NCBI GenBank assembly: GCA_903824675.1
Contig: CAIJXV010000088.1
Coordinates: 7,318-71,317 of the forward strand
DNA: 64,000 bases
DNA from: an uncultured bacterium
Lineage (GTDB): Bacteria; Verrucomicrobiota; Kiritimatiellia; CAIKKV01; CAIJXV01
Direction: 5' to 3'
The notes beneath the pieces are model-generated. The model worked only from the letters and a program-made list of their open reading frames with translations. It had not been told where the DNA came from and did not search any database. Positions 5,276-51,359 of the stretch are shown piece by piece (within the stretch, counting starts at the first letter, position 1; each line of letters begins with the position of its first letter). Made by a program: the position numbers and the translations under genes.

Positions 5276-5279
5276 GGGT

Positions 5280-6805: not shown

Positions 6806-7016
6806 GACGGACGCCGGGTTAGATGTCGGGTCCGTCCTGCCGGAGATCTTGATTCCCGGGGTCCGGGAGCCGCAACGGCCCCAATACTTTACTCCCTCTT
6901 GTATTTACAATTGCAGAAAAGAATTGCAGGGGATTCAATGGGGGGAGTATAAACATTCCTAATAGCCCGTCGGACTTTGGCTGTGCCCAATCCCATAGGA
7001 TTCTAGGAGGACTCTC

Positions 7017-8867: not shown

Positions 8868-9010
8868 ATTTGACGGGATGGCGCGCGCCTTTACGTCGTA
8901 ATCCCGCACTTTCGGATTATTTTCGTGTTGCCCCACCCCGAAAGGATGTGATACCCCTATTGCCCTATACCGGAAGGTGAGTCGCGGCCGGCAACCGGAA
9001 CGAAGTACGC

Positions 9011-11588: not shown

Positions 11589-11591
11589 GAC

Positions 11592-25842: not shown

Positions 25843-25898
25843 TGGATTCCTAAAGCCCAAGCAGGGACACGACTTCCACCGCAGCAGGAGAACCCACG

Positions 25899-27920: not shown

Positions 27921-28043
27921 TCGGTCAGCCGGCCGTGCCTCCGACAGCCCTGCAAAGTGACTAATTTGTTTGTGTCGTAACCCGGAGATGATTAACATCT
28001 GGCGCGGTAGACGTATGAACCCGCCGTTTCAAGGAGAACGACC

Positions 28044-30970: not shown

Positions 30971-31972
30971 ATGACTACCGATATCGAAAAACAGGTCGCC
31001 GAATTACAGGCCGCCCGATCTGCCCTGATGACGGGATTTGGTCAGGTGATTGTCGGGCAAACCGCGGTATTGGAGGAGTTATTGATTACGGTTTTTGCGG
31101 GAGGGCACAACCTGCTGGAGGGTGTTCCGGGTCTCGCCAAAACCCTAATGATCAATACGCTGGCGCATCTGCTCGCGTTGGATTTCAAGCGTATCCAGTT
31201 TACGCCGGACTTGATGCCCTCGGATATCACCGGAACCAACGTGATCGAAGAAGATCATGTCAGCGGCAAACGCATCTCGGTGTTCATGGCCGGTCCGATC
31301 TTTACGCATGTATTGCTGGCCGATGAAATCAACCGGACCCCGCCCAAAACCCAGTCGGCCCTATTACAGGCGATGCAGGAGAAGGAAGTCACCGCCGCCG
31401 GGAAGACCTATCCGCTCTCACCGCCTTTCTTTGTCCTCGCCACCCAGAATCCCATCGACCAGGAAGGCACCTATCCTTTGCCCGAGGCGCAGAAGGACCG
31501 GTTTTTGTTGAATACCTTCATCGGGTATCCGGCTTTGACTGAGGAAGAGGATATCGTCGAAAAAACGACCGCCAACTGGGAAGCCTCCGTTCAACCGGTT
31601 TTGGATCGGGACCGCCTGATCGCCTTTCAGAAAGTGGTGCGCAGTCTGCCGGTTTCTCGGCATGTGACGGGTTATGCCGTGGATCTGGCGCGCGCCAGCC
31701 GACCGGCCGATCCCACCGCGCCCGAATTTATTCGCAAGCAGGTGATTTGGGGTGGCGGGCCGCGCGCGGGGCAGGCCTTGATCCTCTGCGCCAAATGCCG
31801 GGCGGCCCTGGCCGGCCGGATCAATGTCTCCTGCGAAGATGTCCGCCGGATGGTGCTGCCGGTGATGCGGCATCGGGTGGCGCCCAGTTTCGTGGCCGAA
31901 GCCGAAGGCATCACTTCTGACATGATCCTGAACAAACTGTTGGAGACGGTGCCGGAGCGGACACACGTCTAG
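30971..31972 (+). CDS. moxR: MoxR-family AAA+ ATPase
   Basis: VIVGQTAVLEELLITVFAGGHNLLEGVPGLAKT Walker A. VLLADEINRTPPKTQSALLQAMQE Walker B and sensor. The length and order are typical of MoxR. Confidence 0.9.
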   Translation: MTTDIEKQVAELQAARSALMTGFGQVIVGQTAVLEELLITVFAGGHNLLEGVPGLAKTLMINTLAHLLALDFKRIQFTPDLMPSDITGTNVIEEDHVSGKRISVFMAGPIFTHVLLADEINRTPPKTQSALLQAMQEKEVTAAGKTYPLSPPFFVLATQNPIDQEGTYPLPEAQKDRFLLNTFIGYPALTEEEDIVEKTTANWEASVQPVLDRDRLIAFQKVVRSLPVSRHVTGYAVDLARASRPADPTAPEFIRKQVIWGGGPRAGQALILCAKCRAALAGRINVSCEDVRRMVLPVMRHRVAPSFVAEAEGITSDMILNKLLETVPERTHV

Positions 31973-32030
31973 GAATCGGTTGGACTTTGCCGGGTGGGCG
32001 GCAGCAGAAAAGAACGTGTTCAGGCGTGCA

Positions 32031-32111
32031 GTCATCCCGAGCGAAGTCGAGGGATCTCATATTCCGGATAACTGAGGAGCCGATAGATCCCTCGACTGCG
32101 CTCGGGATGAC
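32031..32111. repeat. Long imperfect inverted repeat or hairpin (27-bp stem, 26/27 paired, 27-nt loop) in the moxR-DUF58 intergenic region
   Basis: Left arm gtcatcccgagcgaagtcgagggatct (32031..32057). Right arm agatccctcgactgcgctcgggatgac (32085..32111). One mismatch. Confidence 0.85.
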
Positions 32112-32273
32112 GAACGAGGAGCGGCAGGATGACGAACGGGGTGCGGTGGGAGGACGAACCGGGAGTAGCGGAATGGAAGCTATTAAGATGGGTACCGGAC
32201 TTAACAAATTAGCGACAAATCATTTATCGTTACATTGGCACGAGATGCTTATTAAAGGCGAGGCCTCGTACGC

Positions 32274-33296
32274 ATGAGCTTGCCGCGCTTGACTCCACTT
32301 CATTTCCCGCCCTGGTGGGGCGCCTTACGGGACCGGTTGGATCGGTTGCGAACGCGTTGGCGGGACCGGGGTGATCTGACGGTGACGACCCGTATCCGGG
32401 AAGGACAGGATTCCCGGCGGTTCCTCGATCCCGAGACCCTGGCGCGATTCGGATTGACCCCGCTGATGGCGCGCCGGGTGGTGGAGGGATACATCAGCGG
32501 ATTGCATCGCTCGCCCTTTCGGGGGTTTTCAGTGGAATTTGCCGATCATCGCGAATACGTGCCGGGCGACGACCTGAAATTTCTCGATTGGATGTTGTAC
32601 GCCCGGACCGATCATTATTACATCAAGCGGAGCGAGGAAGAGACCAATGTTCGCTGTTTCATCCTGCTCGATCGATCGGCCTCCATGGCGTTTGGTACCG
32701 GGCGGCTCACCAAGTGGGATTATGCCTGCCAGATGACCGCTTGTCTCTCCTATCTGATGATCAAACAGCAGGACGCGGTGGCCCTGGGTCTTTTTTCCGA
32801 CACGCCGACGGTTTTAATTCCGCCGCGGGGTCGCAATCAGCATTTACACACCCTGCTACGGACCCTGATCCAGTATCCCCCGTCCGGGCCTTCGAAGGTG
32901 GGGGAAAGTATGCGCATTCTTCTGCAACGCATCAAGCGGCGGAGCCTGGTGGTGGTGATCAGCGATCTACAGGACGATCCCGAAGAGACCCTGCGAGGGA
33001 TCCGTCTGATCGCCAGCCATAACCATGATGTGCTGGTTTTCCAGGTCCAGGATCCGGCCGAAATCGATTTCCATTTTACCGCGTCAGCCCGTTTTCGCGA
33101 TGTCGAAACCGGCGAGGAACTCGAGGTGGATCCGGCGACCATCCGGGAAACCTACCAGGCGCAAATCCGCGCCCTGACTGATTTTTACCGGCGCGGTTTG
33201 TCCGAGGCGGGGATTGATTATCAGCCCGTGAATATCCGGGACCCCCATGACCGGACGCTGGAAGCCTATTTGCATCGGCGGATGAAATTGCGGTAA
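32274..33296 (+). CDS. DUF58 domain protein (MoxR-associated, vWA-like)
   Basis: FRGFSVEFADHREYVPGDDLKFLDW is the DUF58 hallmark. Lies immediately downstream of moxR. Confidence 0.85.
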   Translation: MSLPRLTPLHFPPWWGALRDRLDRLRTRWRDRGDLTVTTRIREGQDSRRFLDPETLARFGLTPLMARRVVEGYISGLHRSPFRGFSVEFADHREYVPGDDLKFLDWMLYARTDHYYIKRSEEETNVRCFILLDRSASMAFGTGRLTKWDYACQMTACLSYLMIKQQDAVALGLFSDTPTVLIPPRGRNQHLHTLLRTLIQYPPSGPSKVGESMRILLQRIKRRSLVVVISDLQDDPEETLRGIRLIASHNHDVLVFQVQDPAEIDFHFTASARFRDVETGEELEVDPATIRETYQAQIRALTDFYRRGLSEAGIDYQPVNIRDPHDRTLEAYLHRRMKLR

Positions 33297-33304
33297 AGGA
33301 GCAG

Positions 33305-35590: not shown

Positions 35591-37842
35591 CCTGGATTTG
35601 GAATCCGGTATGGCCGCCGTGGGCGATCGGTTGTGCGGTCCTGCTGTTATTGCTGGTGACCTGGCTGGGTTACCGGATCCTGCGGCTCCGGAACATTCCC
35701 AACCGGTGGGCGGGAATTCTGCTGATGCTCCGGCTCCTGGCGGTCCTGGTGTTCGCCTTGTGTCTGTTACGTCCGACGGTGCGGATGGAACACCGGGTTC
35801 GACGCGCGCCTGACCTGCTCGTGCTGGTGGATCGGTCGGCCAGCATGGCGGCACCGGCCGGCACGAACCAACCCGCCCGCTGGGACTCCCTGCGTCGGAC
35901 GTTGACCGACAGTCCGTTGGCGACCCGCTATCTCAGCCGGCACAATACGCATCTGTTTGTTTTTGATCGCACGGTCGTGCGGGCTGAAATTCCGGATCTG
36001 GCGCGAATGAAACCCGACGGGGCGACCACCCGGATGGCCGCCGCGATTCAAACCGCCTGGAGTCTGTATCGCCAGCAAAGCATCCCGGACGATTTACCGG
36101 GAATGCAAGCCAACCGGGTTCTGCTCCTGTCTGATGGACTGGATCGCGATCCACAGGATCCGGCGGAGGTGGCCCGCGCCCTGGGGTTGGCGGTGGATGT
36201 TCTGGAATGGCCGGCACCGGGACTGCCGTCGGCGGATACCCCGCCGGCGATAACCGCGATTCAGGCGCCGGTCCGGATTCTGCAAGGGGCCGAGGGCCGG
36301 GTCCGGGTGACGCTGGCCATACCCCCCGCTTCGGGGGCCACGGTTCTGCGGCTGATCGAAGGCGAGCAGGAGATCGTACGGCAGGATCTGCCGGCGGGCC
36401 CCACGCTTTCAAGGGGACCGGTTGAACTGGTTTTTACGCCGACGCTTCCCGGCACTCATCATTACCAGGTTCGATTGACTTCGACGGCCTCGCCCGTTCC
36501 TTTTTCCGGTGAAGCAGAACGGCCCTTCAGCGTGACCGTGCCCAGTTTGAAAAACGAAGTGTTGTTTCTGGATGATGCCTGGCGCTGGGATTTTAAGTTT
36601 TTGCGGCGGGTAATGGAAGACGACCCCGCGTTTGCCTTGACCGCTTTTCTGTCGCGCGGCACGGGATTGTACCAGCAATTCGGCGAGCCGGACCGGCAAA
36701 TCAGTCTGGGAGGTTTTCCCCAAAGCCGGACCGAATTAGGCTGGTTCGATATCTTTATCCTGGGCGACACGGATCCACGGAGGTGGCCCCGGGCCCTGGC
36801 GCCGGCCTTGCGTGATTTAGTGGTGGAGGAGGGTAAATCCCTGTTGGTGATCGCGGGCCCGCGCTTGGTGGGGTGGGCCGATGTGCCCGAACTCGCCGGA
36901 CTGTTGCCGGTGGAGATGACCCCGGAAACGGCAAAACCCCTGCCCGGTCCGATCGCGATCCGATTGCGTCCGGAGTCCCGGAACAGCGCTTGGTTTTTTG
37001 CGCCCACCGGGCAGGCGCTTCAGCGTTGGGCCGATCTGCCCCCGGTGGATCAGATTTATCCGGTGACGCGCAAACGCCCCGCCGCGCAAATCCTGCTGGA
37101 AGCGTCCGGCCTGTCGAATGCCAACGGTCCCCTGATCGTCCTGGCGGAACATACCGTGGGGCGGGGGCGCGTTCTCTTCCTCGCCACGGACACCCTTTGG
37201 AAATGGCAGATGGCGGCCGTCCTGGATGCGGAAGGCAACACGCCTTATCTCTTTTTCTGGCAACAGGCCTTGCGGGCGCTTCAACCCATCCATTCCCGCA
37301 AGGGGAATCAAGCACTTCACCTGGAAACCGACCGGAGCAGTTATCAGGTGGGCGCCGAAGTCCGATTGAAAGCCAGGCTGGAAGGGGATAAGGTTGCAGA
37401 CCAACCCGTTTTCGAGACGGGCGTGACGTTACCTGATGGGCAGACGCTTCCCCTGAACTTGCTGGCCGATCCCCGGCAGCCAGGAGTTTTCCAGGCGGTT
37501 TTTGAAGCGGCGCTTTCCGGTGCTTACACGGTACGCGCAACCGGCTACGATGGGGGCCGCCCGTTGGCCGATGCGCAGTTGATTCTGAATGTCGTCGAAG
37601 CGCCGCCGGAAGAGCGGGCGCAACCACCGGCGGCCATGTTCCTGGCCAATCTGGCGCAGGCGACCGGCGGGATGCGGATCGATCCTCAGGATCCGGCGAC
37701 CTGGCCGCCGCCGGCCACGGCCGAGCGCGAGATTCTGGTGCCGCGTTTCATCGAGGGTTGGGCCTTGCACCGATTGCTTTTGCTGTTGGTCGTGTTGTTG
37801 GGCGCCGACTGGTTGATCCGTTTGATCCGGGGGTATGTATGA
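35587..37842 (+). CDS. BatB-like membrane-anchored vWA domain protein (751 aa) with a C-terminal TM anchor
   Basis: N-terminal TM helices. LVLVDRSASMA is a MIDAS-like DxSxS. The C-terminal helix is LLLLLVVLLGADWLIRL. ATGA-coupled on both sides. Confidence 0.6.
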   Translation: MTWIWNPVWPPWAIGCAVLLLLLVTWLGYRILRLRNIPNRWAGILLMLRLLAVLVFALCLLRPTVRMEHRVRRAPDLLVLVDRSASMAAPAGTNQPARWDSLRRTLTDSPLATRYLSRHNTHLFVFDRTVVRAEIPDLARMKPDGATTRMAAAIQTAWSLYRQQSIPDDLPGMQANRVLLLSDGLDRDPQDPAEVARALGLAVDVLEWPAPGLPSADTPPAITAIQAPVRILQGAEGRVRVTLAIPPASGATVLRLIEGEQEIVRQDLPAGPTLSRGPVELVFTPTLPGTHHYQVRLTSTASPVPFSGEAERPFSVTVPSLKNEVLFLDDAWRWDFKFLRRVMEDDPAFALTAFLSRGTGLYQQFGEPDRQISLGGFPQSRTELGWFDIFILGDTDPRRWPRALAPALRDLVVEEGKSLLVIAGPRLVGWADVPELAGLLPVEMTPETAKPLPGPIAIRLRPESRNSAWFFAPTGQALQRWADLPPVDQIYPVTRKRPAAQILLEASGLSNANGPLIVLAEHTVGRGRVLFLATDTLWKWQMAAVLDAEGNTPYLFFWQQALRALQPIHSRKGNQALHLETDRSSYQVGAEVRLKARLEGDKVADQPVFETGVTLPDGQTLPLNLLADPRQPGVFQAVFEAALSGAYTVRATGYDGGRPLADAQLILNVVEAPPEERAQPPAAMFLANLAQATGGMRIDPQDPATWPPPATAEREILVPRFIEGWALHRLLLLLVVLLGADWLIRLIRGYV

Positions 37843-40800
37843 GTCCTCCCTATAATCTCCAGTCTCTCCGGCGGTTGGTCCGGCATCACAACCGGCGCTG
37901 GCGCAACCTGGTCATCGCCGAGGCTTTTTCATTTTCAGCGGCGACCCTGCTGGCGGCGCTCTGGCTGGTCTTTCTATTGGATAACGCCCTGCACTTCACG
38001 ATGCCCCTGCGGCTGATCGTCTGTGGTTTCTTCGGCTTAGGCGTCCTGTTCGGATTGATCCGGGTGGTCAATCGGTGGCGTCGTTCGCGATTCGGCGAGG
38101 ACCAGGTGGCTCTGGCGATCGAGGGCGGAACGCAGAATCATCTCGAAAATCGCCTGATCAATTCCCTGCAATTGGCGCGAATCGGGGATCCGGATGCGAT
38201 GACCACGGCGGTCATTGAGGACAATTGCCGGCATTTGACGGCACTCCATCTGCCGCCGGCGATGAGTGGCCGGCCAGCGGCGATCGCCGCCGGGCTGGCG
38301 TTGACGATGGCGTTGGCGGGGATCGGATTCTGGTGGATTGCGCGGGATCGTTTTGTCAATGCCGCGACCCGGATTTTCATGCCCCTGGCCGATGTTGCCC
38401 CCCTTTACCGCACCCGGATCCTGTTGGCGCCGGGCGACGTCGAGATCCGTCCGGGAAGCGATGTCCTCCTGACGGCGCAGATCGAAGGGCGCGTGCCGGA
38501 GTCGATTACGCTCTTCCGGCATGGCGCCGAGGCGCGGTTCAGCGAAGACCTTCCGGTGCCGCCCGGAACCAACCGGGTGAGCTATCTCCTGCGAAACATC
38601 CAGGTGTCGATGACCTACGCGGTTCGGGGCGGGGATTACATCACTCCGTTTTATGCAATCACCATTCCCCAGCCGGCGGATCTTCAGCGGTTGACGGCGA
38701 CGTATGTGTATCCTGCCTATACCCGTCGCCCGGATAAAATTCAGGAAGGTTCCCAGGGGGAGTTGGAGGCGCTTCATGGAACGCGGGTGACCGGACTGTG
38801 GGGATTAAACCGGCCGGTCGAGGCGGCGGTTCTGGTTTTGGAGGGGACCACCGATCCGGCCGCCGACTCCAACGAAACCCAACGGATCGCCCTCGCCCGG
38901 GTGGATGCCCAAACGTATCGGGGTGAATTTGAAATCGGCCGGTTTACCGGCTACCGGATCGAATCGCGTCAGACCGGCCGCCCGGCCGAATCGGGTCGCC
39001 GGTATGAAATCCGCATTGGCGAGGATCAACCGCCCGATCTTCAATTCGGGGGAATTGAACCGCAGGCGGAGCTGATGATGGATGCCGTGATCCCCGTTAC
39101 CTTGATAGGTCGCGACGATTTCGGACTGCGGACGATGGGGTTGTTCTTCCGTCCCGATGACGACGAGGGAACCAATCCGGTGTCCAGTTCATCCAGCACG
39201 CAAGCCTGGCAGACCTTGCGGCAATGGGATCCACCGGGAATGCCGGTCGTGTTCACCACGAATACGGCTCTGGCTCTGGCCGCCCTGGCGGTGGCGGAAG
39301 GGGAGCGGGGCGAGATTGCCATTCGGGGCCGGGACACGTGTCCTGCCCGCGCGGATCAATGGGTCACCGGGCGGACGTGTGCCGTGGTGATGGGCGGGGT
39401 CGGTACGGCTCTGCAACTCCAGTATGAAAAGATTTTACATGACGAGGCCGCTCTGGCCCGGCTGACAGCGGAAGTCCAGGGGCTGATCACGAGGCAAAAC
39501 GAGTGGAGCGCGAAACTGGATCCGGCATCGGGCTTGCGCTGGGATACCCGGGAGACGCTGGATCCCTTCGTCAAAGCAGTCCAGGTGATGGTCCGCGATG
39601 CGGATGGCCTGCGCGAGCGGACGGCCGCCCTGGCCCGCAGTTTGGATGAGGCGGAGGCGGCGGTTCGCTTGAGTCTCGGATTGCTGGCGGATACCGAACA
39701 GGTCCGACTCCGGCGGGTTTTTCAATCCGTGGCGGGCCGGGACAGTGTCCAGGGCAAGCGGGCGGCTTTGGGGGAAGCGCGGTTGACGCTCGAACGGATG
39801 TTCCGAAGTTTGAAGGACAATCAGGCGCATCATGCCCGATACCGCCAGGATTGGGAATTGGCGCACATGACGGCGTTCCTCAAGATGCTGGCCGAACGAC
39901 AGGATCGGATGGCGACCGAGTCGGCCACCTATGCCGGGCTGGAGGCCGGATCGATCGATCCCCGTGTGGCGTTGGGGACGGGGCGACGGCAGGACAAGGT
40001 GGATGCCTTGTTGGGTTTGGCTGGCACGGCGATGAAGGGACTGGGGAGCGGAGACACTCCGCCGGCGGGTCCGGCGTTGGGTGCGGCCTTTATCGCGACG
40101 GCGGCCGCGTTTGAGGAGCCCGGCGTTCGACCGGCTTTGCGCGAAGCGGCGGGTCATCTGCGGGCGGCCCGGTGGGCCGAGGCCTCCGGAATTCAACGCC
40201 GGTGTGCCGAAACGTTGATGACCTTGTATGTAGGGTTGGTCAAGATCCAATCCGATGCCGCCCGGCAGGCGTTGGAGGATGTCCAAAAACTCACCGAGAG
40301 CGGGTTGGAAGGACAAAAGGCGATTGAGGAATTGAAGGCGGGTTCCCCGGAGAACCTGTTGGATCTGAATCCGGATCAATTGAGTGTGGCGGAGATTGTG
40401 CATCTTCAGGAGATGGCGGCGCGGGAACGACAGCGGCGGAGTGCGGCGGCTGACAAGCGCAACGATTATCTCTTCGAGGAAAAGATGAAAGCGTTGTTGT
40501 CCCCGCCTGACAACGGGCGTCGCCAGGCTTTCGAAGATTTGAAACTGGCCCAGAAACCCTCCGGGGAAAAGAGTTTTCCCAATTCCTCCGATCGCGCCGG
40601 AAACAGCGTCAAGCCGCATGTCCAGGAGGAATTCGAGGATCTGGTGGGGAATCTGCTGGAAGAAGCCGACGACTTGCGGAAAGATTACGAAACCTACAAC
40701 ATCAATGCCGGCTTCAACATTTCCGAACAAGGGGAAATCGGCAAACAGAGTGGGGATTTGAATTCAACCGCGGCGGCGGCCGCCACGGGTAACATGAAAC

Positions 40801-41513
40801 CGCCCTCGCAGGATGTGGGCGGAGTTTCCCGTAGCGGACGCCAGGGGGCCCGGGCCCATGGAATGGTCGCCGGCGAAAAATCGATCAATCGGCGGGGCCG
40901 CGATGAGGCGCAGGAAGGCCAGCAGGAAATTCCCGACCAGGCCGGGAAGCTCGCCGAGGAAAAATCAAGCGATCCCCAGAAGGATACCTCCACCGGGGTG
41001 GGCGGCAAGGAGGTCGCATCGGACGATGCGAGTTTCAGCGTCAAGGATGCCGGTGAATGGAAGGATGAGATGGCCGATCGGATGAAACCGCCCAACACGG
41101 TGAACCGGGTGGTGGAGCGCCAGGGAAAACCGTTGCCGCCGGATGTCGCCGACAAATTGCGCGATTGGGAGAGCCGCCAGGAACAAATCGTCCAGCGGCT
41201 CAAGGTAATCCGCAAGAAACTTGACAACCTCTATCTCCCCACGGAAGATCTCGATGCCTTGGCCAACCAGTTGAATGCGAACCTCGACCGGCTCAAGGAG
41301 AATCCCTCCGCCGACCTGTTCCGTCTCCAACAACAGACGCTGGATCGGCTGGTGGGGACGTTGATGGTGTTCAACCGGGCGGCGGCTGAATTTGCGCCCA
41401 GTGTGCCGCGCGAACAGCGGGTTCGCGGATCCATTTTGGATGAAATGTCCGCGCCGTCCCTGCCGGGTTACGAAGAGGCGGTCAAGCGCTACTACGAGGA
41501 GTTGATCCGATGA
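37839..41513 (+). CDS. Large (1224 aa) membrane protein: N-terminal double TM, central globular region and a highly charged coiled-coil C-terminal third
   Basis: TM helices FSFSAATLLAALWLVFLL and LRLIVCGFFGLGVLFGLI. The C-terminal ~400 aa are rich in E, K, R, D and Q. ATGA overlap with both neighbours. Confidence 0.6.
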   Translation: MSPPYNLQSLRRLVRHHNRRWRNLVIAEAFSFSAATLLAALWLVFLLDNALHFTMPLRLIVCGFFGLGVLFGLIRVVNRWRRSRFGEDQVALAIEGGTQNHLENRLINSLQLARIGDPDAMTTAVIEDNCRHLTALHLPPAMSGRPAAIAAGLALTMALAGIGFWWIARDRFVNAATRIFMPLADVAPLYRTRILLAPGDVEIRPGSDVLLTAQIEGRVPESITLFRHGAEARFSEDLPVPPGTNRVSYLLRNIQVSMTYAVRGGDYITPFYAITIPQPADLQRLTATYVYPAYTRRPDKIQEGSQGELEALHGTRVTGLWGLNRPVEAAVLVLEGTTDPAADSNETQRIALARVDAQTYRGEFEIGRFTGYRIESRQTGRPAESGRRYEIRIGEDQPPDLQFGGIEPQAELMMDAVIPVTLIGRDDFGLRTMGLFFRPDDDEGTNPVSSSSSTQAWQTLRQWDPPGMPVVFTTNTALALAALAVAEGERGEIAIRGRDTCPARADQWVTGRTCAVVMGGVGTALQLQYEKILHDEAALARLTAEVQGLITRQNEWSAKLDPASGLRWDTRETLDPFVKAVQVMVRDADGLRERTAALARSLDEAEAAVRLSLGLLADTEQVRLRRVFQSVAGRDSVQGKRAALGEARLTLERMFRSLKDNQAHHARYRQDWELAHMTAFLKMLAERQDRMATESATYAGLEAGSIDPRVALGTGRRQDKVDALLGLAGTAMKGLGSGDTPPAGPALGAAFIATAAAFEEPGVRPALREAAGHLRAARWAEASGIQRRCAETLMTLYVGLVKIQSDAARQALEDVQKLTESGLEGQKAIEELKAGSPENLLDLNPDQLSVAEIVHLQEMAARERQRRSAAADKRNDYLFEEKMKALLSPPDNGRRQAFEDLKLAQKPSGEKSFPNSSDRAGNSVKPHVQEEFEDLVGNLLEEADDLRKDYETYNINAGFNISEQGEIGKQSGDLNSTAAAAATGNMKPPSQDVGGVSRSGRQGARAHGMVAGEKSINRRGRDEAQEGQQEIPDQAGKLAEEKSSDPQKDTSTGVGGKEVASDDASFSVKDAGEWKDEMADRMKPPNTVNRVVERQGKPLPPDVADKLRDWESRQEQIVQRLKVIRKKLDNLYLPTEDLDALANQLNANLDRLKENPSADLFRLQQQTLDRLVGTLMVFNRAAAEFAPSVPREQRVRGSILDEMSAPSLPGYEEAVKRYYEELIR

Positions 41514-42763
41514 GCCTTTTGCTCGTGATTCTCGACGGCTCGCCGGAGGCTCGCCCTCCAGTGCTGGAGCAGTCCGTCGGGAATTCTTTGACCCGTTTTA
41601 TGGAGGGCGAACGTCTCGTGAGCCGCATGTTCGCCGGGCTAAAAAGTTCTTTGGTTTTGGGCGTGATCGTCCTGGCCTTGGCGCTGGGAACGGCGCGAGC
41701 CGAGTGGGCGTCGAATCGCCTGGTCTGGGTGCGTGAACCCGGGGCGATGGTGATGGCGGTGCATTCTGTGCAACCCTGGTTGGCCGTTGGGCGACAGGGG
41801 GGGGTGGACGAGGCGGTGCGGATTTACCGGTTGGAGGCGGATGGACAACGCGCGGCAAGCCCCTGGGTGACCTTGTCGGCGCCACCGGTACCTGCCGCTG
41901 TGAAACCCCAAACCGTGGTCGACCTGGTCTTTCATCCGCGGGAACCCCTGTTATATGTCCGCTGGGGCTGGTCGTCGGAGAGCCTTGCCGATCCGAAGAC
42001 TCGGGCGGCCTCCACCAACCTGGGGTGTTTGGCGATTTACCCATTGACTGAAACGGGTTTGGGTCGGGCGGAGCTATTTGCCCGGGGGGCGATGTTTGCC
42101 GCCGGTTTGAAACCGGGCCGGATGGCGATCGAGGCGGATGCCCGCCGATTATATTTATCCAACCTGACGCTTGGCAGCGGAATCGGTTTAGGGTTGGGGT
42201 CACTGCCCTTGTTGACCAATGGCTGGCCCCGTCTGAGCGATGGCGAATGGCTTCCGGTGACGATCAATGTGGACGTCTTACGCGGCCCGCCGAACGGCTG
42301 GGGATTCCTGGCTTGTTCCAACGCGTTGATTTTCGGCACCCAGTTCGGACTGGCGACTTGGGATGCCGGGAACCGGTTGGCTCCGCTCGGAGTACTTCCC
42401 ATTCAGGAATTGGTCAATCAGATCTGGGCAGGTGGAGTTGCGGAGATTCCGGCGGCTTACGGATTGGAAGTTGATCGCAGTCTGGCCATCGGGGTTGCCC
42501 AGAGCGACGGATTTTTATCGGGCCGGCCACAAACCCTGACCGTGGAGGGGGCGGCTTTTTGCGCCCCCCCGGCGGTGGTTTCACGACCGCCGATGTACGT
42601 GGCGGCGCCGAGTCCGGCGAAGGTGGATCTCCTGTCGATCAATGCGCTGGGCAATTTTGACGGAGCGGTGGAGAGCCGGCCTGCGACGGGGGGTAAGATC
42701 TGGGATGTGAAATATTCCGCCCGGGCCGACCGTCTGTATGTCTTGCAGGAGGTGACGCCATGA
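41510..42763 (+). CDS. Hypothetical exported protein
   Basis: ATGA-coupled. An internal signal-like segment MFAGLKSSLVLGVIVLALALGTARA (alternative start 41627). No recognisable domain. Confidence 0.5.
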   Translation: MSLLLVILDGSPEARPPVLEQSVGNSLTRFMEGERLVSRMFAGLKSSLVLGVIVLALALGTARAEWASNRLVWVREPGAMVMAVHSVQPWLAVGRQGGVDEAVRIYRLEADGQRAASPWVTLSAPPVPAAVKPQTVVDLVFHPREPLLYVRWGWSSESLADPKTRAASTNLGCLAIYPLTETGLGRAELFARGAMFAAGLKPGRMAIEADARRLYLSNLTLGSGIGLGLGSLPLLTNGWPRLSDGEWLPVTINVDVLRGPPNGWGFLACSNALIFGTQFGLATWDAGNRLAPLGVLPIQELVNQIWAGGVAEIPAAYGLEVDRSLAIGVAQSDGFLSGRPQTLTVEGAAFCAPPAVVSRPPMYVAAPSPAKVDLLSINALGNFDGAVESRPATGGKIWDVKYSARADRLYVLQEVTP

Positions 42764-43461
42764 AGGGGACCCCGAGACGCCGCCCCGAAGGGAAAATCGT
42801 GGAATCTGCGAATACGGGAAGAGGGTTGTTCCAGGCCCTCATTCTGGCGATCGTTCTCGGTTTGACGGCGAGCCTGAGTTCCGCCCGCACCGTGATTTTG
42901 GAGGGACAGGAGATCGATCGGGCGGCTGGAATGGCGGCGGATGCGCCCCGGATGGGTTGGGCGATGTCGTGGCTTCGGCCGGGCATCTACACCACAGCCT
43001 TGCTGGACCTGGTACCGGGTCGCAGTTTCTTATTCCGGTTTCCGCTGGAACGAATCCCGGCCAGGCAACGAATTACGCAGGCGGAGCTTATTTTGCCGGT
43101 TGAGGGGGTGGAGGGTACGGATCCCCGCCTCTATGTCTGGCGGTTGGCGGCAGAGTGGGGGGTGGGGGCGTGTTACGATTACCGAAAAACCATTCCCCAG
43201 AAAATCGCCTGGACGCGGCCGGGCGCCGGTGGACGTTTTTCGGATCGGGCGGGGCGGCCGACGGTGGTGGCCCGACTGGTGGCCCCCGGGTTAAAAGTTT
43301 TGAATGTGACCGAAGACGTTGAACTCTGGTACGCCGGGGCGGCGACCAATTGGGGTTGGTTATTGACGGTGGAGGATCCGGGGATCCGGATCCAACTGGG
43401 CGCTCCCCTGATCACCGGCGAACGGCAATGGAAATTACGGATCACCCATGAACCCGAATAA
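42760..43461 (+). CDS. Hypothetical secreted protein
   Basis: ATGA-coupled. Hydrophobic signal anchor LFQALILAIVLGLTASLSSA. Confidence 0.5.
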   Translation: MKGTPRRRPEGKIVESANTGRGLFQALILAIVLGLTASLSSARTVILEGQEIDRAAGMAADAPRMGWAMSWLRPGIYTTALLDLVPGRSFLFRFPLERIPARQRITQAELILPVEGVEGTDPRLYVWRLAAEWGVGACYDYRKTIPQKIAWTRPGAGGRFSDRAGRPTVVARLVAPGLKVLNVTEDVELWYAGAATNWGWLLTVEDPGIRIQLGAPLITGERQWKLRITHEPE

Positions 43462-46400: not shown

Positions 46401-47020
46401 AGGCGTTAGAGTGGATAAAAAGTCTGGAGACGGGCTTTCCTGAATTTTATGCCCAGAATGGATATGCCGCAACGGCCACCCGGTGGGCGGCGAAGGGGGT
46501 GGCCACGACGAATTCATTGGCGACCCGCTTGATGGATTTCGATTTCGACCACACCTTTCCCCGGGTCAATGAAAACACGCCGGACGATGTGATGCCTCTG
46601 CTGGGGCGTGAAAATCCCGGGGTCTTGTTGGTGGCGATCGAGAAAGCCCGGACACAAGGACTCCGGTATTCGCTCAATCTGCCGAAGTTGACGGCGGGTG
46701 GGCGGATCTGGGTTGAATTTTGGTATACTGCGGAGGGGACCCTGGCGCCGCCGTTCGACGATCCAACGGTGACCATCGAAGTCAAGGGGGATTCAGACGA
46801 GATCTCCCGAAACCGGGAAGGGCTCGATCAAACCTATGGCGATTGGCGGAAATATGCCCATTGGTTTGTGGCCCCCCATTCGGATTCCGCCATCGTTGTT
46901 TTAAGATTGGGCGCCTTGACGCGGGGACTTTATCAGTTTGATGATGTGCGGGTCCGGTCCGTCAGCGACGCCGAAGCCGAACGTTTGCGCCAATTCATTG
47001 AAGGGACGGACCCGCAATGA
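43448..47020 (+). CDS. Large secreted multidomain protein: Ala/Gln-rich coiled coil, PA14 domain, PKD domain and C-terminal TPR-like repeats
   Basis: Signal anchor WWVGLAAGLILACAIGG. PA14-like YRGYLKITEPGVYRFLINGDDAAFLFIDNYKVY...GLHPIEVHQV...LLWLKPG. PKD-like LSWNFGDGLSGVGETPAHVYFQTGDREVSL. TPR-like AAYRAAADLG...YEAVLKL.... Confidence 0.7.
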   Translation: MNPNNRPRKQQKGTPGQQTRWWVGLAAGLILACAIGGVDARVSAGVDTNRPAAPEWLAGYQIRYPVFVPEAASLTAPNSVMVRLPTGGWLLPDARDVAVQGRDGRLIASAVLSHDPRGFTLVQFKRREHDEWYWIYGVHPNPPPAIDAGLLRQIQAADAVARKALTEKMEMQKLSAQAAEALRAVRDRVDQATATSNAAAREIASWEPLLAERQAKVDAAVAQVPPADAALTAATAAATGARTIAQERLARVQKLDGEVRAASNTWGMARSAYLVASNALAAAQAAVKKATPDKIGAARQAVQTATEAYRTSEAQIQTTGKELTQRTVQWREAEGAALPERMEATRLETLMETARQDRAQKAAQLQKAQASVGEARTARDRAMSLRDSSAAILTEAAPQLPDLKEAFEIRHTTAEQAAVAAQAAVAQHTRLVADADPRVLREGLTVEFRDWAGDELTDWATVYEGLNRSESVIGNGIVPAILQNFNPVRRSEPRNFAASYRGYLKITEPGVYRFLINGDDAAFLFIDNYKVYSRKGSHAPLVGRIPMYGVGEEIELEAGLHPIEVHQVVGNTPGAEGRCALLWLKPGASGWSLVPPPAFSQSLIGTPAGVEARDGKPVAIIGWGIDDTLVSDGVFLSLVRFQAVGSYPDGARLSWNFGDGLSGVGETPAHVYFQTGDREVSLASHPTLPPFKRRIHIWSAPMPTSPFSLAAVVDVFRGWNPDRLSRAQLDSMFAVLTLCGQTNRWDLQERLCERLLAQKDLDSQYRMAVQVARMDARAAGGRAAEALNGYRAATNEVNRLRIPRMRLMMEGARIQQVYLRDFEAAGRLYDAILDEGRRIRHPVVRAAATARGDLYWDAGDWAQASAAYRAAADLGSDAVADLDPTGADQDATRGALLRVAEQALKSGDMRQSQRLLKRIERAFPEQKLEGFYRFLRAETDRKLGAYDDAVRNYEAVLKLPAWSSYRAATLAGIADAYARAEEWNQALEWIKSLETGFPEFYAQNGYAATATRWAAKGVATTNSLATRLMDFDFDHTFPRVNENTPDDVMPLLGRENPGVLLVAIEKARTQGLRYSLNLPKLTAGGRIWVEFWYTAEGTLAPPFDDPTVTIEVKGDSDEISRNREGLDQTYGDWRKYAHWFVAPHSDSAIVVLRLGALTRGLYQFDDVRVRSVSDAEAERLRQFIEGTDPQ

Positions 47021-47382
47021 GAAACCTTTGGATGCGAAAAAAACCCTTTTTGATATTCGCGCCCTTCCCACTCGAATCCCCGCGGCCATCGGCCGCGGCT
47101 ACAACCGATCTCCCTGTGGAGGTGGTCGCTGACCGCCTTTCTCCTCCCCATTGGGGTGCAAACGAAGTCCACCGAAAATTGTTCCGTCCCATTGCAGAAG
47201 AAAGCGATCTGACTGGATGCGGATGGAGATCCGGGGTAGTGCGAGCTCTCCGAGCGAGCCGAGGAACAACCCCGACGGTTCCCCCGGGCCTACTCCGCCG
47301 AAGTCAAGCCTCTGGCTACGAAGGCTGGAAGGTGTCGCCCGACCCGAGTCAACTACCGCTTGGCGGCTCTTTTTCTCCGGTG

Positions 47383-49458
47383 ATGTTTTGGAAAAAGCCC
47401 TGCATCTGGTTGTTGGCGGCGATGGGGTTGTTGGCGGGGAATCTGTTGGCCGCCGCGGAATGGCGCAGTAACGGCCGGGGGGGCGGCGCCTGGATGGAGG
47501 GTTCCGCCTGGCAGGGGGGACGGGTTCCCGGCGAACGGGATACGGTGCGGGTTGTCAGCGGCGACCAGTTGGTATATGCCGGCCTGACCCCGACGGGTCG
47601 GCTGACCTGCGCGGGAATTTTCATGGAGACCAATACGGTTCTCGAATTCAAGGCCGATGGGGGACATTATGTGTTGCGCGTAGCGGGGGCCATCCGCTCT
47701 TCCGGCACCCTCCGACTGGATGCGTCCAAAACACCCAAGGGGATGATGGAACTGCATCTGGTGGGCGAGCGTGAGGATGAGCGGATGATTCACTTGCTGT
47801 CCAATAGTCTATTTGTCGCGCACGGGGCAACTGGATTGCCGGAACGGCGCAATAACGTGCTGGTTTGTACCGGGCCCCCTCGTCCCGGCCAAATCCGCCG
47901 CTCGGCGGTGATCAAGGGTGAGGACTATGCCCGGGTGGACTTGAGCAACGTGGGATTGGCCTATCCTTCCGAGTTGCATTCCAACGGACGGGGCGGGGGG
48001 GCCTGGACCGATCCGTTGAGTTGGCGCGAAAAGATTGTGCCCTTCAGCGCCGACACGGTGATTCTAACGGCGGGCGACACGGTTGAATTCGATGGAGATG
48101 GGCGGACCGAGGCCTCGTGCCGGCGGCTGTTGCTCGATCCTCAATCGACGCTGACCTTTCGGGACGATGGGGAGACCCATGTGCTGAGCATCAATGGGGG
48201 GGTGGAATCTTATGGTTTGATCCGGCTGGACGGGCGGCATCAACCGCAAGGGGTACTCGAACTCCGGCTGGTGAGCGGCGATTCCGCGGATAACCAATTA
48301 ATTTGCAGAGATAAATCCGCCTTGTTTCTGGCGGGTCACGAAAGTCCGGTTGGCGGTCGGCCGAATGTGCGGATGACCGGTGGAAGTTTGGATACGGGGC
48401 GGCCAAAGAGTCTTCCCTTGAGGATCGAGGCCGGGGCGGGGGTGCAGATCGATTGTCAGCGCAGTGAATTCTCGAACGTGGTGCTTCGGGCTGAAAAACT
48501 GGACAATACGGGTGTTCGCTCGGATGAACGGATGCAATTGACCGGCAACCGGTTTATGGGCGCCGCGCGGGTGGAATTGGTCCAGTGTGATACCCCGGTG
48601 ATTCAAAAAAATATCTGGGTCGGGGGCGGCACGGCAGAGGCGAGCCCAACGGCGCTCAAACTCGACGGTTGTAGTCTGGCGCAATTGCAATACAACACCT
48701 TCTCCGGAGCGTATGAACGTGCGGTTTGGATCATCCGGGATACGGACAGTTCGGCGATGTTCAACGAGATCGTGGGGGCGAACCAGGGGTTTGATTGGCA
48801 AGGCCAGAATGCCATGTTGAAATCAAACCGGATTCGCGTCACAGGAGTGGGGGCGACCTTTGACAAGACACCGGCGGTCATCGAGAGTTCCACAATTGAA
48901 GGGAAGGTTCCCCTATTGGGCCGTCAGACCCACCTGCAGGTGAGCGATTGCGCTTTGTCGGCACCCGAAACGAACGGGCCCTTGATTCGATTGGAATCCG
49001 CTTCCGCAACGATTCTGAATGTTGCGTTGACGCCGGGGCAGGTTCAACGAGTCGGGACTGCGTCGGGTCCGTTCTGGGTGGAGACGATGAATTATGTGGT
49101 GGTCCGGTTGCGCGGGACGATTCCGGTCGGGGCTCGGGTGGCGATCCGGACGGCGAAAGCTTCCGGCGGACCTCCGGCGGGTGCGGCTGATATGAATGTG
49201 CGCAACAGTCCCGTACCGGTTTCGACAGAGGGGTGGACGCCTCTGCCACGAAGCTTGCGGTCTTTGATCGTCCGTGCCTGGAGTGTGACGGGCGCGGGGG
49301 TGGTGAAGGACTCCCCATTTTATGATCTGGACGTGACGGCGGCGGATCCAACCGGGCCCGTCCGGGTCGTTTCGACCCAAGTGGTGGAACCGAAAACGGA
49401 TTGGATCCGGCCTGATCCCCAGGCCGCGCAGGCCACCGTGGAGGTGAGCCTGCCATGA
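47383..49458 (+). CDS. Secreted protein with an internal ~150-aa duplication, likely beta-helix/beta-sandwich
   Basis: Signal peptide MFWKKPCIWLLAAMGLLAGNLLAAA at 47383. The ORF is open from 47017 (ATGA with the upstream stop), but that 122-aa extension is unstructured and lacks a signal. The modules NGRGGGAWxxxxxW...TVxxxxGDxxxxxG...RLDxxxTPKG/HQPQGxxELxLV repeat twice. Confidence 0.55.
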   Translation: MFWKKPCIWLLAAMGLLAGNLLAAAEWRSNGRGGGAWMEGSAWQGGRVPGERDTVRVVSGDQLVYAGLTPTGRLTCAGIFMETNTVLEFKADGGHYVLRVAGAIRSSGTLRLDASKTPKGMMELHLVGEREDERMIHLLSNSLFVAHGATGLPERRNNVLVCTGPPRPGQIRRSAVIKGEDYARVDLSNVGLAYPSELHSNGRGGGAWTDPLSWREKIVPFSADTVILTAGDTVEFDGDGRTEASCRRLLLDPQSTLTFRDDGETHVLSINGGVESYGLIRLDGRHQPQGVLELRLVSGDSADNQLICRDKSALFLAGHESPVGGRPNVRMTGGSLDTGRPKSLPLRIEAGAGVQIDCQRSEFSNVVLRAEKLDNTGVRSDERMQLTGNRFMGAARVELVQCDTPVIQKNIWVGGGTAEASPTALKLDGCSLAQLQYNTFSGAYERAVWIIRDTDSSAMFNEIVGANQGFDWQGQNAMLKSNRIRVTGVGATFDKTPAVIESSTIEGKVPLLGRQTHLQVSDCALSAPETNGPLIRLESASATILNVALTPGQVQRVGTASGPFWVETMNYVVVRLRGTIPVGARVAIRTAKASGGPPAGAADMNVRNSPVPVSTEGWTPLPRSLRSLIVRAWSVTGAGVVKDSPFYDLDVTAADPTGPVRVVSTQVVEPKTDWIRPDPQAAQATVEVSLP

Positions 49459-51227
49459 GAGAGATGAGTAATCCCAATGTCACACCCCTCACCCCCGCCC
49501 TCTCCCTCAAGGGGCGAGTGAGGAGACCAGACCCGGAATCCAACCTGATATCGGGGCCTTTTTCCGGGGATGGCGTCCCCTGTTTCCCATCTCTCCCCGA
49601 CGAGGGAGAGGTCGGAGCCGATCGCCGTTTCGGCGCGTCGGGTCCGGGTGAGGGGAATCGTTTAACGGTTCGATGGGGTCGGCGAGTTGTACTCGTGGCA
49701 GGGGTGTTGGCATTCCTCCTGTTCGGCGGCGGACCCAGCGCGTCATTGGCCCAGCGGACGGTCAGCTTCCCCCCAGCGGAAAGCAAGCCGCCGCCTCCAG
49801 TGAAGGCTCCGCCCCGGACGCAGTCCTCGGGGGAAGATACCAGCCTGCTTCCGGATTTCGGGCCGACGATGCGCAAGACCCAGGAGCGCCAGCCGCCGCC
49901 GCCGACCTCCCTGACGGTGATGTACAAGGTCGAGTATGGCGAAGCTTTGCAATATGTTTATCCGGATGGCACCGTCCAAAAATTCCAGCAATGGATGAGC
50001 TACCAGAACGACGGCTTTCAGCTGCTGAAATGGGTTAATGAACGCTTGCAGGATGGCAACAACTACCTGTATGCGACCAAACCGTTGGCCAGTCCCGGAT
50101 TCGATCCGGTCGATATTCCCCTGTTGTACATGACGGGCGATTATGATTTTCAATTGCGAGAGACGGAGGTCGCCAATCTGCGGCGGTTTTTATTGGATGG
50201 AGGCACGATCCTGTTCAATGCGGCCCGGGGACGGGATGATTTTTCGGCGGCGGTCGTCCGGGAAATGAAGCGCGTTTTTCCGCAGAAGAACATGATGAAA
50301 CTGCCGCCGGACCACCCGATTTTCAACAGCCGGTACCGGATCAACCAGGTGAATGTCATGATCAACGGGGTTCAGTTTTTACAACCGCCGGAATTATATG
50401 CCGTGGATATTGGTACGCGGTCGGCGGCCATCCTGGCGCCGTCCGGATTTGGTTCGGCCTGGAGCGGCGAAGCCTATCATCCCGGGGGACGGCATATGAT
50501 CGGGGAATCGGCCGTGCGGCTGGGGGTCAACCTGGTAGCCTATGTGCTGGCGAGTACGGAGTATGGTCGGTTTTTGGCGCAGGAATTTCCCGTGTATGAA
50601 GGGAGTTCCCGCGCGGGGGATGTTTTCCGGTTTGCCCTGGCGCGCTATGCCGGAAGTTGGGATGTGAACCCGGCCGTGCAGAATTCGATCCAGCAGGCGC
50701 TCAAGGAAAACACCGGGATCGATGTCGATTATGCGCCACATGCGATTAATCTGGACGACCCCGAGTTGGCCAATTTCCCGCTGGTGTTTATGACAGGGCA
50801 CTACGATTTCACGCTGACGGCGCCTGAGATTGAAAATCTGCGAGCCTTTCTGAACAAAGGCGGGTTGCTGGTGGGATTGCCGGCGGCGGGGTTCCAGCCG
50901 TTTACAACCGCTTTCCGGCGGGAGCTTCTCCGGGTTTTGCCGGAGACCGAATTCATTCCCATTCCTCCGTCCCACGCCGTGTTTAGCGGCGGATGGAATG
51001 CGATCGATCAAGTGGCCTATACGCCGCGGGCTCTGCGGGACGATCCGAGTTTGACGACCCCGCAATTTGACGGACTTTTTGTCCAACAGCGTCTGGCGGT
51101 ATTAGTGACGCCGTATGATGTTTTGAGTGGAGCCAATCGGGAGCCGAACGCTTACAGCAAAGGTCTGGTGGCGGACGATGCGCTGCGGGTCATGCTGAAT
51201 CTCATTACGCATGCGTTGAGTCATTAG
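49455..51227 (+). CDS. Protein with two tandem DUF4159-like domains
   Basis: Signal anchor VVLVAGVLAFLLFGG. Two copies of the module (P/F)LLYMTGDYDFQLRETEVANLRRFLLDGGTILFNA and FPLVFMTGHYDFTLTAPEIENLRAFLNKGGLLVGLP, matching the DUF4159 consensus as recalled. It is the last gene of the moxR operon. Confidence 0.6.
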   Translation: MREMSNPNVTPLTPALSLKGRVRRPDPESNLISGPFSGDGVPCFPSLPDEGEVGADRRFGASGPGEGNRLTVRWGRRVVLVAGVLAFLLFGGGPSASLAQRTVSFPPAESKPPPPVKAPPRTQSSGEDTSLLPDFGPTMRKTQERQPPPPTSLTVMYKVEYGEALQYVYPDGTVQKFQQWMSYQNDGFQLLKWVNERLQDGNNYLYATKPLASPGFDPVDIPLLYMTGDYDFQLRETEVANLRRFLLDGGTILFNAARGRDDFSAAVVREMKRVFPQKNMMKLPPDHPIFNSRYRINQVNVMINGVQFLQPPELYAVDIGTRSAAILAPSGFGSAWSGEAYHPGGRHMIGESAVRLGVNLVAYVLASTEYGRFLAQEFPVYEGSSRAGDVFRFALARYAGSWDVNPAVQNSIQQALKENTGIDVDYAPHAINLDDPELANFPLVFMTGHYDFTLTAPEIENLRAFLNKGGLLVGLPAAGFQPFTTAFRRELLRVLPETEFIPIPPSHAVFSGGWNAIDQVAYTPRALRDDPSLTTPQFDGLFVQQRLAVLVTPYDVLSGANREPNAYSKGLVADDALRVMLNLITHALSH

Positions 51228-51359
51228 TTTGGTCGGAATACGATGCGTAACGGGGCGCGGGGCGTCGGGCGGTGGCCGGTCTTGCGATTCGAGTTGAAAA
51301 GTGCTAAAATGTAAAAATTAAGTTTAAACTGGATGGCCAGCGGCAAGGAGACGGGTATT

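Follow-up and report, generated by a model that had tools for sequence, protein, structure and literature searches.

An expanded Bat-like MoxR-DUF58-vWA gene cluster with predicted glycan-binding accessory proteins in bacteria of the PVC group

Gene clusters that encode a MoxR-type AAA+ ATPase, a DUF58 protein and BatA are known from Bacteroides, Riemerella, Borrelia and Leptospira, and are still without an agreed biochemical function. In a wider context, the pairing of MoxR with a protein that has a vWA (von Willebrand factor A) domain is a hallmark of maturation systems for cofactor insertion. Such pairing in maturation systems has been documented (PMC7159879), and in characterised pairs the metal-ion-dependent adhesion site (MIDAS) of the vWA domain binds an extended client peptide, while the ATPase remodels the complex (PMC7159879, PMC3495828). 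The bat operon was first described more than 25 years ago (Tang et al. 1999, as cited in PMC11834572). Deletion of batA renders Riemerella more sensitive to oxidative stress (PMC11834572), whereas a Leptospira mutant devoid of all bat genes displays no phenotype, oxidative stress included (PMC3557215). Here we analyse a cluster of ten genes, g1 to g10, extending from a moxR gene to a DUF4159 gene (30971-51227) in a stretch of 64,000 nucleotides (nt) from an uncultured bacterium of the Kiritimatiellia, hereafter the window, to which all coordinates refer. We rate the cluster as a variant, belonging to the Planctomycetes-Verrucomicrobia-Chlamydiae (PVC) group, of this known but functionally unsettled cluster type, and not as a new category. 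From its parts and neighbourhood we infer a function, and our confidence is evenly balanced that it forms a periplasmic complex, anchored in the inner membrane and regulated by ATP, whose task is to bind or organise polysaccharide of the envelope or surface.

A first-pass annotation of the window, made from the letters alone, had described an expanded, uncharacterised Bat-like system of ten same-strand genes. All ten open reading frames (ORFs) were found on the plus strand where it had placed them (ORF list and junction reading; Table 1), and with every part now classified, its description of a Bat-like core with accessory proteins holds. As in the Bacteroides Bat operon, B. burgdorferi BB0170-BB0176 and Leptospira batABD, a MoxR protein of the AAA_3 family comes first and is joined by DUF58, by a BatA protein with a double transmembrane (TM) segment and a vWA domain, and by a second TM-vWA protein; of these parts, MoxR, DUF58 and BatA_N with its vWA domain pass the profile thresholds. 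Both cluster types include a partner with tetratricopeptide repeats (TPR), and in both the vWA domains lie, by experiment or prediction, on the periplasmic side. They differ in that the vWA proteins are here of a long form of about 750 amino acids (aa) with GATase1-like and immunoglobulin (Ig)-like domains and a C-terminal TM segment, that the TPR is embedded in the PA14-PKD protein g8, where Bat has the TPR(-SH3) proteins BatC/BatE, and that six genes are added, namely the DUF4175-like g5, g6, g7, g8, g9 and the DUF4159 gene g10. BatD is absent: models of BatD and SH3 (BatE-type TPR-SH3) matched none of the ten proteins at E<=0.01, nor the ones of unknown family at E<=10.

Table 1. Features of the cluster and its flanks in the window.
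Feature	Position	Strand	Evidence
g1, MoxR-type AAA+ ATPase, 333 aa, cytoplasmic	30971-31972	+	AAA_3 2.1e-60, AAA_lid_2 3.8e-14 (Pfam)
g2, DUF58, 340 aa, vWA-like co-chaperone	32274-33296	+	DUF58 1.3e-54 (cut-off 23.4 bits), VWA_2 1.6e-12
g3, BatA-type inner-membrane protein, 761 aa	33305-35590	+	BatA_N (PF07584) 1.3e-14, VWA_2 2.6e-10, TIGR02226 5.9e-16
g4, second TM-vWA protein, g3 paralogue, 751 aa	35587-37842	+	hhalign to g3, probability 99.8, E 7e-28
g5, divergent DUF4175-family protein, 1224 aa	37839-41513	+	hhalign to DUF4175 (PF13779) proteins
g5, cytoplasmic loop, residues 78-146	38070-38276	+	motifs EDQVALAIE, NRLINSLQL
g5, G/R/D-rich segment, residues 961-1075	40719-41063	+	predicted disordered, pLDDT <50
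g6, secreted orphan, probable beta-propeller, 417 aa	41510-42763	+	
g7, secreted DNRLRE/CBM96-type (TGF-beta-prodomain-like) beta-jelly-roll, 233 aa	42760-43461	+	
g8, secreted PA14-PKD-TPR protein, 1190 aa	43448-47020	+	PA14 2.4e-7, PKD 7e-5 (Pfam), YbgF-like TPR 2e-6
g9, secreted G8 + right-handed beta-helix protein, 813 aa	47017-49458	+	G8 7.6e-5
g10, secreted tandem DUF4159 (PF13709) protein, 590 aa	49455-51227	+	DUF4159 7.2e-61 in two stretches
Upstream flank: GHL6/fucosidase-like protein, DegT aminotransferase, DUF4118 protein			
g11 and g12, internally repetitive DUF1565 / right-handed beta-helix proteins, 909 and 1237 aa	51333-57783	same as cluster	

Neither g1 nor g2 has a TM segment or a signal sequence by hydropathy. 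In g1, the Walker A (GVPGLAKT) and Walker B (LLADEINR) motifs are both intact in the translation, and identity to the orthologues in other loci is 66-80%. The earlier DUF58 call for g2 passes the profile search, and the protein, which is free of hydrophobic segments, carries a DRSAS MIDAS motif. For g3, hydropathy places TM segments at residues 5-23, 58-76 and 689-711, and for g4 at residues 14-32, 43-61 and 729-747; in both proteins two N-terminal TM segments flank a strongly basic loop, and one follows at the C-terminus. This pattern predicts that the mass of vWA, GATase1-like and Ig-like domains resides in the periplasm, in agreement with the BatA-like BB0173, which experiments have located in the inner membrane with its vWA domain facing the periplasm (PMC5700661). 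The MIDAS motif reads DVSRS in g3 and DRSAS in g4. While the vWA domain of g4 stays below the Pfam threshold, it is supported by the hhalign match to g3, the intact DxSxS motif and vWA matches in the PDB: a profile of the g4 family retrieved the vWA structures 4rck (2.7e-5) and 4cn8 (3.5e-5), next to the GATase1-like 3rht (5.9e-7) and filamin Ig domains (1e-4). The corresponding GATase1-like and Ig-like regions of g3 were assigned through homology to g4. An identification of the GATase1-like domain as DUF4159 was considered and dropped; hhalign was not significant (probability 0.4% and 6%), and we therefore make no DUF4159 claim for g3 or g4.

The vWA proteins had been singled out in the first pass as more than twice the size of BatA/BatB; a length of 700-800 aa is the usual long form in such clusters and not peculiar to the locus, those of L083 and L084 reaching 717, 775 and 805 aa. 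In L083, an unrelated contig, a canonical DUF4175 gene adjoins MoxR-DUF58-BatA, and the order in L084, DUF58 - BatA-vWA (775 aa) - vWA (805 aa) - DUF4175, mirrors g2-g5. Long vWA proteins and a regular DUF4175 partner are thus traits of a wider, uncharacterised cluster type. The further neighbours in these two contigs are TPR/peptidase_MA-like or prenyltransferase-like, whereas g6-g9 stand between the DUF4175-like and DUF4159 genes here; the insertion of g6-g9 and the tandem DUF4159 protein are the PVC elaboration of this type.

The g5, g6 and g7 sequences of the window had no match in Pfam, NCBIfam or PDB sequence searches, and their assignments came from sets of orthologues. In the case of g5, no PF13779 or NCBIfam match was obtained even at E<=10. 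When an alignment of the g5 family was compared to seven PF13779-bearing proteins by hhalign, however, the probability was 100 (E 1.7e-66, 762 columns), with homology taking in the TM region, the beta-sandwich region and a C-terminal ..VKRYYEEL.. motif. The weakest database relatives of g5 carry PF13779 themselves, with direct HMMER links up to E 8e-18. Based on the profile-profile comparison, we regard g5 as a divergent DUF4175 protein. What had been described as a 1224-aa membrane/coiled-coil protein does contain three TM segments and a helical bundle, and is refined to a member of this family. AdvA of Acinetobacter, also annotated as 'DUF4175', was set aside, since there the annotation covers the N-terminal end of another protein, one of cell division.

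An AlphaFold2 model of g5, with a predicted local distance difference test score (pLDDT) of 73.6, comprises a TM hairpin, a cytoplasmic loop and a third TM segment, followed in the periplasm by three to four tandem Ig/FN3/MG-like beta-sandwiches (residues ~190-520) and a helical bundle of about 350 aa; its C-terminal part consists of a low-confidence G/R/D-rich stretch and subsequent helices. Fold searches with g5 retrieved generic Ig/FN3/macroglobulin arrays only. Two segments exceed the overall conservation of the protein (0.59). The cytoplasmic loop (0.65) has invariant residues V90, A91, L92, A93, E95, N104-N108 and Q111, and we consider it a candidate docking site for MoxR/DUF58. The G/R/D-rich segment is, at 0.71, the best conserved part of the protein, with many invariant G, R and D residues, and may be an extended-peptide ligand of the periplasmic MIDAS sites.

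The proteins g6-g10 each have one N-terminal hydrophobic segment, and by hydropathy all carry signal sequences. Two of them, listed in the first pass as secreted unknowns, are indeed secreted proteins but can now be classified. For g6, no Pfam family was found in any of 38 orthologues, and the family is represented by only 198 clusters among 1.84 billion representatives; the nine top PDB matches of its profile are coatomer WD40 beta-propellers (E 0.002-0.03), followed by YbhE (0.06) and YncE (0.15), and g6 is thus probably a beta-propeller. For g7, a sequence match to DNRLRE_dom and a match to the jelly-roll fold were obtained, with the window copy itself below the model threshold. Its closest structures are chondroitin-sulfate- and alginate-binding carbohydrate-binding modules (CBMs); compared to known DNRLRE/CBM96 modules (PDB 8wab, 7vbo), to which identity is about 11%, g7 is a stand-alone secreted domain that is not fused to a lyase or hydrolase.

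The reading of g8 as a PA14-PKD-TPR protein is upheld by the PA14 match in the window copy and by the orthologues for the other two domains, as PKD is borderline and the Pfam TPR sub-threshold in the window copy; PA14 was found in 35, PKD in 36 and TPR_12 in at least 24 of 38 orthologues. A conserved N-terminal domain is followed by a coiled coil (~150-430), PA14 (493-575), PKD (639-682), TPR (~819-1003) and a C-terminal beta-rich domain; the coiled coil is clade-specific and present in part of the family only. Among 27 orthologues of g9, Beta_helix was matched by 23, NosD by 21 and G8 by 11, and in the PDB its profile found weak matches to NosD and fucoidan lyase. The duplicated module that the first pass had seen in g9 is real: the G8-like N-terminal module is repeated at 33% identity (E 4e-25), in this clade only. 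The tandem DUF4159 call for g10 likewise passes the Pfam search in two stretches, the first domain alone scoring 2.6e-28, and g10 matches PDB 4i66 (Hoch_4089, function not assigned) at 6.9e-23. The mature protein has a conserved proline-rich N-terminus and no invariant cysteine, and with 50-73% identity across the PVC loci g10 is second only to MoxR within the set.

The conservation of the cluster was investigated by a genome scan anchored on an alignment of g5 homologues, which yielded 80 loci from metagenome-assembled genomes (MAGs), and by comparing every protein of the window with these loci in tblastn and blastp. Nearly all of the loci bear one of the labels Verrucomicrobiota, Kiritimatiellia, Lentisphaeria, Planctomycetota or Chthoniobacterales. 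Among the PVC-labelled MAGs, the ten genes are all conserved together, in two gene orders: g1-g4 followed by g5-g10, as in the window, in 8 loci, and g5-g10 followed by g1-g2-g3 and onwards in 19, with MoxR-DUF58-BatA adjacent in both. Independent gene calls and precomputed Pfam annotations in L081 and L082 give the same gene set in the order g5-g10, g1-g4. Where at least 9.5 kb were available downstream of g5, g6-g10 were all present in 30 of 36 loci. Of the exceptions, two have an insertion that displaces genes beyond the fetched range (L018, L021), two a g6 too divergent to detect (L034, L048), and two are lone g5 paralogues (L033, L039). The neighbourhood check that the first pass had proposed thus came out in favour of co-conservation. 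The system thus consists of two blocks, an engine and anchor (g1-g4) and a second block (g5-g10), which are adjacent wherever there is sufficient sequence.

A reduced version is found in four Phycisphaerae-labelled loci (L072, L075, L077, L078), in the order DUF4159 - MoxR - DUF58 - vWA - vWA - DUF4175-like - PA14/TPR, with no recognisable g6, g7 or g9; in L072 and L078 it is followed by ORFs of 407 and 580 aa of no known family. Most scanned MAGs have one full cluster. Full-length g5 paralogues with no other cluster genes occur in L033, L039 and L051, and two MAGs contain both a full cluster and a lone paralogue (L030/L033 and L027/L039). Six loci (L020, L021, L047, L055, L076, L079) come from MAGs under the labels Klebsiella sp., Candidatus Kuenenia stuttgartiensis or Akkermansia muciniphila, which are evidently wrong and look like taxonomic mis-assignment of the bins.

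The ten genes had also been claimed to be translationally coupled, by six ATGA overlaps and one of 14 nt. Each of these seven reads as claimed: ATGA overlaps at g3/g4 (35587/35590), g4/g5 (37839/37842), g5/g6 (41510/41513), g6/g7 (42760/42763), g8/g9 (47017/47020) and g9/g10 (49455/49458), and the 14-nt overlap at g7/g8 (43448/43461). As these are seven of nine junctions only, with a gap of 301 nt at g1/g2 and of 8 nt at g2/g3, coupling of all ten genes was a slight overstatement. The longest ORF of g5 begins at a TTG (37758), but the ATG at 37839 aligns with the invariant first methionine of its homologues. Across loci, the 4-nt overlap recurs at g3/g4 in 13 of 17, at g5/g6 in 30 of 47, at g6/g7 in 23 of 45, at g8/g9 in 30 of 39 and at g9/g10 in 25 of 33 cases; the g4/g5 junction, which has 4 nt in the window and its clade, shares 4 nt in 5 of 18 loci and a single nt in 4 more, and the 14-nt g7/g8 overlap is also seen in 13 of 43. 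Since this recurrence is found between orthologous loci with protein identities of just 25-45%, the overlaps exceed chance expectation, and the coupling is an ancestral, selected feature. The g10-to-g1 junction, by contrast, never overlaps; its gap is 0-30 nt in 6 loci, 31-150 nt in 13 and more than 150 nt in 5.

Several local features of these junctions may be mentioned. The stretch 43448-43461 is dual-coding, with the ATG of g8 located within the conserved Y/H-E-P-E-stop end of g7, which constrains both the C-terminus of g7 and the N-terminus of g8 (MNPN, MSRN). In most orthologues the overlapping ATG runs straight into an ordinary signal peptide, whereas the window copies of g6, g9 and g10 have unconserved stretches of 40, ~115 and ~75 aa in between, making internal starts possible in this genome. 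The leaders of g9 (47017-47358) and g10 (49455-49670) are in frame and open, lack conservation, have a junk-like composition and find no counterpart in the DNA of the 88%-identical relative L001; they may be insertions that a cytoplasmic leader tolerates, or translation may truly begin further in (for g9, for example, with M115 at 47359). The g1/g2 gap harbours a 27-nt inverted repeat (32031-32057 / 32085-32111; 96% complementary, -59 kcal/mol, z -7), directly followed by three 22-nt direct repeats (32105-32170) and no T-run. Neither L001 nor any of the 84 fetched loci has this element (32031-32170), which resembles an insertion of the type of repetitive extragenic palindromes or miniature inverted-repeat transposable elements, and might uncouple the expression of moxR from that of the downstream genes.

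How could such a set of proteins operate? The signal sequences of g6-g10, together with three folds for glycan recognition (DNRLRE/CBM96, PA14 and G8/beta-helix), lead us to favour an envelope complex that handles glycan. In such a complex, a cytoplasmic MoxR hexamer would act with DUF58 as its MIDAS-bearing vWA co-chaperone, and both would act on g3, g4 and g5, which have three TM segments each, through their conserved loops and tails on the cytoplasmic side. The likely points of action are the only cytoplasmic surfaces of these proteins, that is, the basic TM1-TM2 loops and C-terminal tails of g3 and g4 and the loop of about 70 residues in g5. ATP-driven remodelling could then control the assembly or conformation of their large periplasmic parts, where g5 would provide a stalk of tandem beta-sandwiches and helical bundle, and the MIDAS sites of g3 and g4 would bind an extended acidic peptide, for which g5 with its disordered acidic/G/R/D-rich stretch and g10 with its proline-rich N-terminus offer the best candidates. 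The secreted g6-g10 would assemble on the g3/g4/g5 platform and hold or process an envelope glycan polymer, be it of the cell wall, of capsule or exopolysaccharide, or of another surface layer. The system would accordingly serve to build, tether or maintain envelope or surface polysaccharide and not cytoplasmic metabolism. With RavA-ViaA, NorQ-NorD, CbbQ-CbbO and CoxD-CoxE it shares the AAA+ MoxR and a MIDAS vWA partner, here DUF58; unlike in these pairs, its clients are probably the three multi-TM proteins, and the bulk of its mass lies outside the cytoplasm. The stoichiometric envelope-spanning complex, or adhesin assembly, of the first-pass annotation was of the same kind, inferred and not observed.

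A number of points weigh against this proposal. The topology was derived solely from hydropathy and the positive-inside rule, the fold of g6 from weak matches (E 0.002-0.1), and all contacts between the components are of our own proposing. PA14, DNRLRE and beta-helix folds can bind proteins too, so that glycan binding is a prediction. The modules g1-g4 and g5-g10 are parted by a gap wherever g10 precedes g1, and in the window the hairpin-bearing gap of 301 nt after g1 means that co-transcription of g1-g10 can only be presumed. In addition, the Leptospira deletion without phenotype suggests that Bat-like cores may be dispensable under laboratory conditions. Our literature searches found no functional study of DUF4159, DUF4175 or a PVC MoxR cluster, in line with the first-pass statement that no function is established for this architecture.

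The most obvious alternative is a classical aerotolerance or oxidative-stress system, which would protect the periplasm or supply reducing power, as proposed for the Bat proteins of Bacteroides fragilis. The core (MoxR, DUF58, BatA_N with vWA, second TM-vWA, TPR protein) is homologous to the Bat operon, and the sensitivity of the Riemerella mutant would fit. However, profile searches found no redox, thiol or haem domain in the ten proteins, BatD is missing, the Leptospira mutant lacking all bat genes tolerates oxidative stress like the wild type, and the PVC-specific module is made of glycan-binding folds; we consider the explanation improbable. These same folds could instead serve nutrition, with secreted proteins that bind external, for example sulfated, polysaccharides, and a MoxR-driven platform that threads them into the periplasm. 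The PA14 domain occurs in glycosidases and adhesins, and its presence in g8, the chondroitin-sulfate- and alginate-binding relatives of g7, the weak fucoidan lyase matches of g9 and the spread of the loci over several PVC lineages would be compatible with uptake. Yet within the cluster and next to it, genes for a glycoside hydrolase, a sulfatase or a sugar transporter of the TonB/SusCD or ABC type are not conserved, and its flanks always differ; the strong cross-phylum conservation of g10 and MoxR fits a housekeeping role better; and the occurrence of mostly one full cluster per MAG, with extra loci being lone g5 paralogues, is unlike that of multi-copy polysaccharide utilisation loci. Uptake is therefore, in our estimate, an unlikely role, though somewhat less so than aerotolerance. 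It is also conceivable that two independent modules, MoxR-DUF58-vWA-vWA on the one hand and the DUF4175-like and secreted proteins on the other, are merely adjacent. Either block may come first, no locus has a g10-to-g1 overlap, L009 has the blocks split across strands, and g5 paralogues stand alone in L033, L039 and L051. Against this, the blocks adjoin, in one order or the other, in every locus with enough sequence, g4 and g5 overlap in the window, its clade and part of the other loci, canonical DUF4175 lies beside MoxR-DUF58-BatA in unrelated contigs, and the minimal Phycisphaerae-type version keeps both together, which leaves little probability for chance neighbours.

Two further explanations start from the MoxR-vWA pair itself. 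By analogy to NorQ/NorD, CoxD/CoxE and CbbQ/CbbO, it could be a chaperone for cofactor insertion into a single periplasmic enzyme, perhaps the NosD-like g9, as the pairing is present and most g9 orthologues match the NosD Pfam model. Matches to this model are, however, a generic property of PbH1 beta-helices; searches of the ten genes and their flanks gave no enzyme family, and no nosZ, nor, cox or RuBisCO client was found nearby. Moreover, prediction puts the vWA domains of g3 and g4 in the periplasm, across the membrane from MoxR, and seven large accessory proteins far exceed what a maturation factor needs, rendering this role very improbable. We give still less credence, hardly any, to an anti-phage or conflict system of the MoxR-vWA ternary type, to which the bpMoxR Pfam model, matching g1 exactly at its cut-off of 27.0 bits, and the possible beta-propeller g6 might point. 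The score of g1 to AAA_3 is 203 bits compared to 27 for bpMoxR. The g6 propeller, if it is one, is secreted; PADLOC matched none of the ten proteins, and no VMAP, iSTAND, FtsH or effector component and no peptidase or nuclease domain was found. With its synteny, its cross-phylum distribution and mostly one full cluster per MAG, the cluster is also unlike mobile defence islands.

The PVC cluster is the most elaborate form of its type seen in this analysis, co-conserved across loci labelled as several phyla, and it ties three domains of unknown function into one putative machine. Its accessory glycan-binding folds hint at what this machine acts on, such that the vague annotation 'aerotolerance' gives way to testable hypotheses. 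If a role in the envelope is true, a conserved component of the unusual PVC cell envelope has been identified. One may go further and consider a PVC-specific, ATP-regulated, periplasm-spanning apparatus, with g5 as a stalk rooted in the inner membrane and g6-g10 as a glycan-binding cap, to be the genetic basis of an envelope feature typical for this group; we think this unlikely, but it would supply the first function for DUF4175 and DUF4159 and, by extension, for long-form Bat systems. Such a feature could be the crateriform or fibre structures of planctomycetes, a tether for an enlarged periplasm, or the anchoring of a surface polysaccharide layer.

The limits of the unit follow from its neighbours. 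Flanking genes differ in every locus, and none of the flanks of the window was found in any relative. We therefore excluded g11, g12 and the upstream genes, which no relative carries in synteny with the cluster; g11 and g12 are probably surface proteins with no relation to it. In L081 a MerR gene lies upstream of g5; it was rejected too, as it is not conserved in other loci. Rfam had no match anywhere in the window, and promoter and terminator scans performed no better than on shuffled sequence; a promoter-like site (51282-51310) precedes g11/g12. A second MoxR system, suspected at 9-12 kb, proved to be genes for a GHMP kinase, a nucleotidyltransferase, Skp and SpoU. These belong to the regions 234-12380 and 24235-29234, which resemble ordinary chromosome, with genes for a porin, pstC-pstA-pstB-phoU, GHMP kinase, nucleotidyltransferase, Skp/OmpH, SpoU methylase, DEAD-box helicase and DegT. 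Upstream of moxR, 30141-30864 holds the frameshifted remnant of a phosphodiester glycosidase gene (NAGPA, PF09992) in a region of about 900 nt, with the last fragment (30643-30864) recognised at E 9e-20 and the earlier fragments in other frames.

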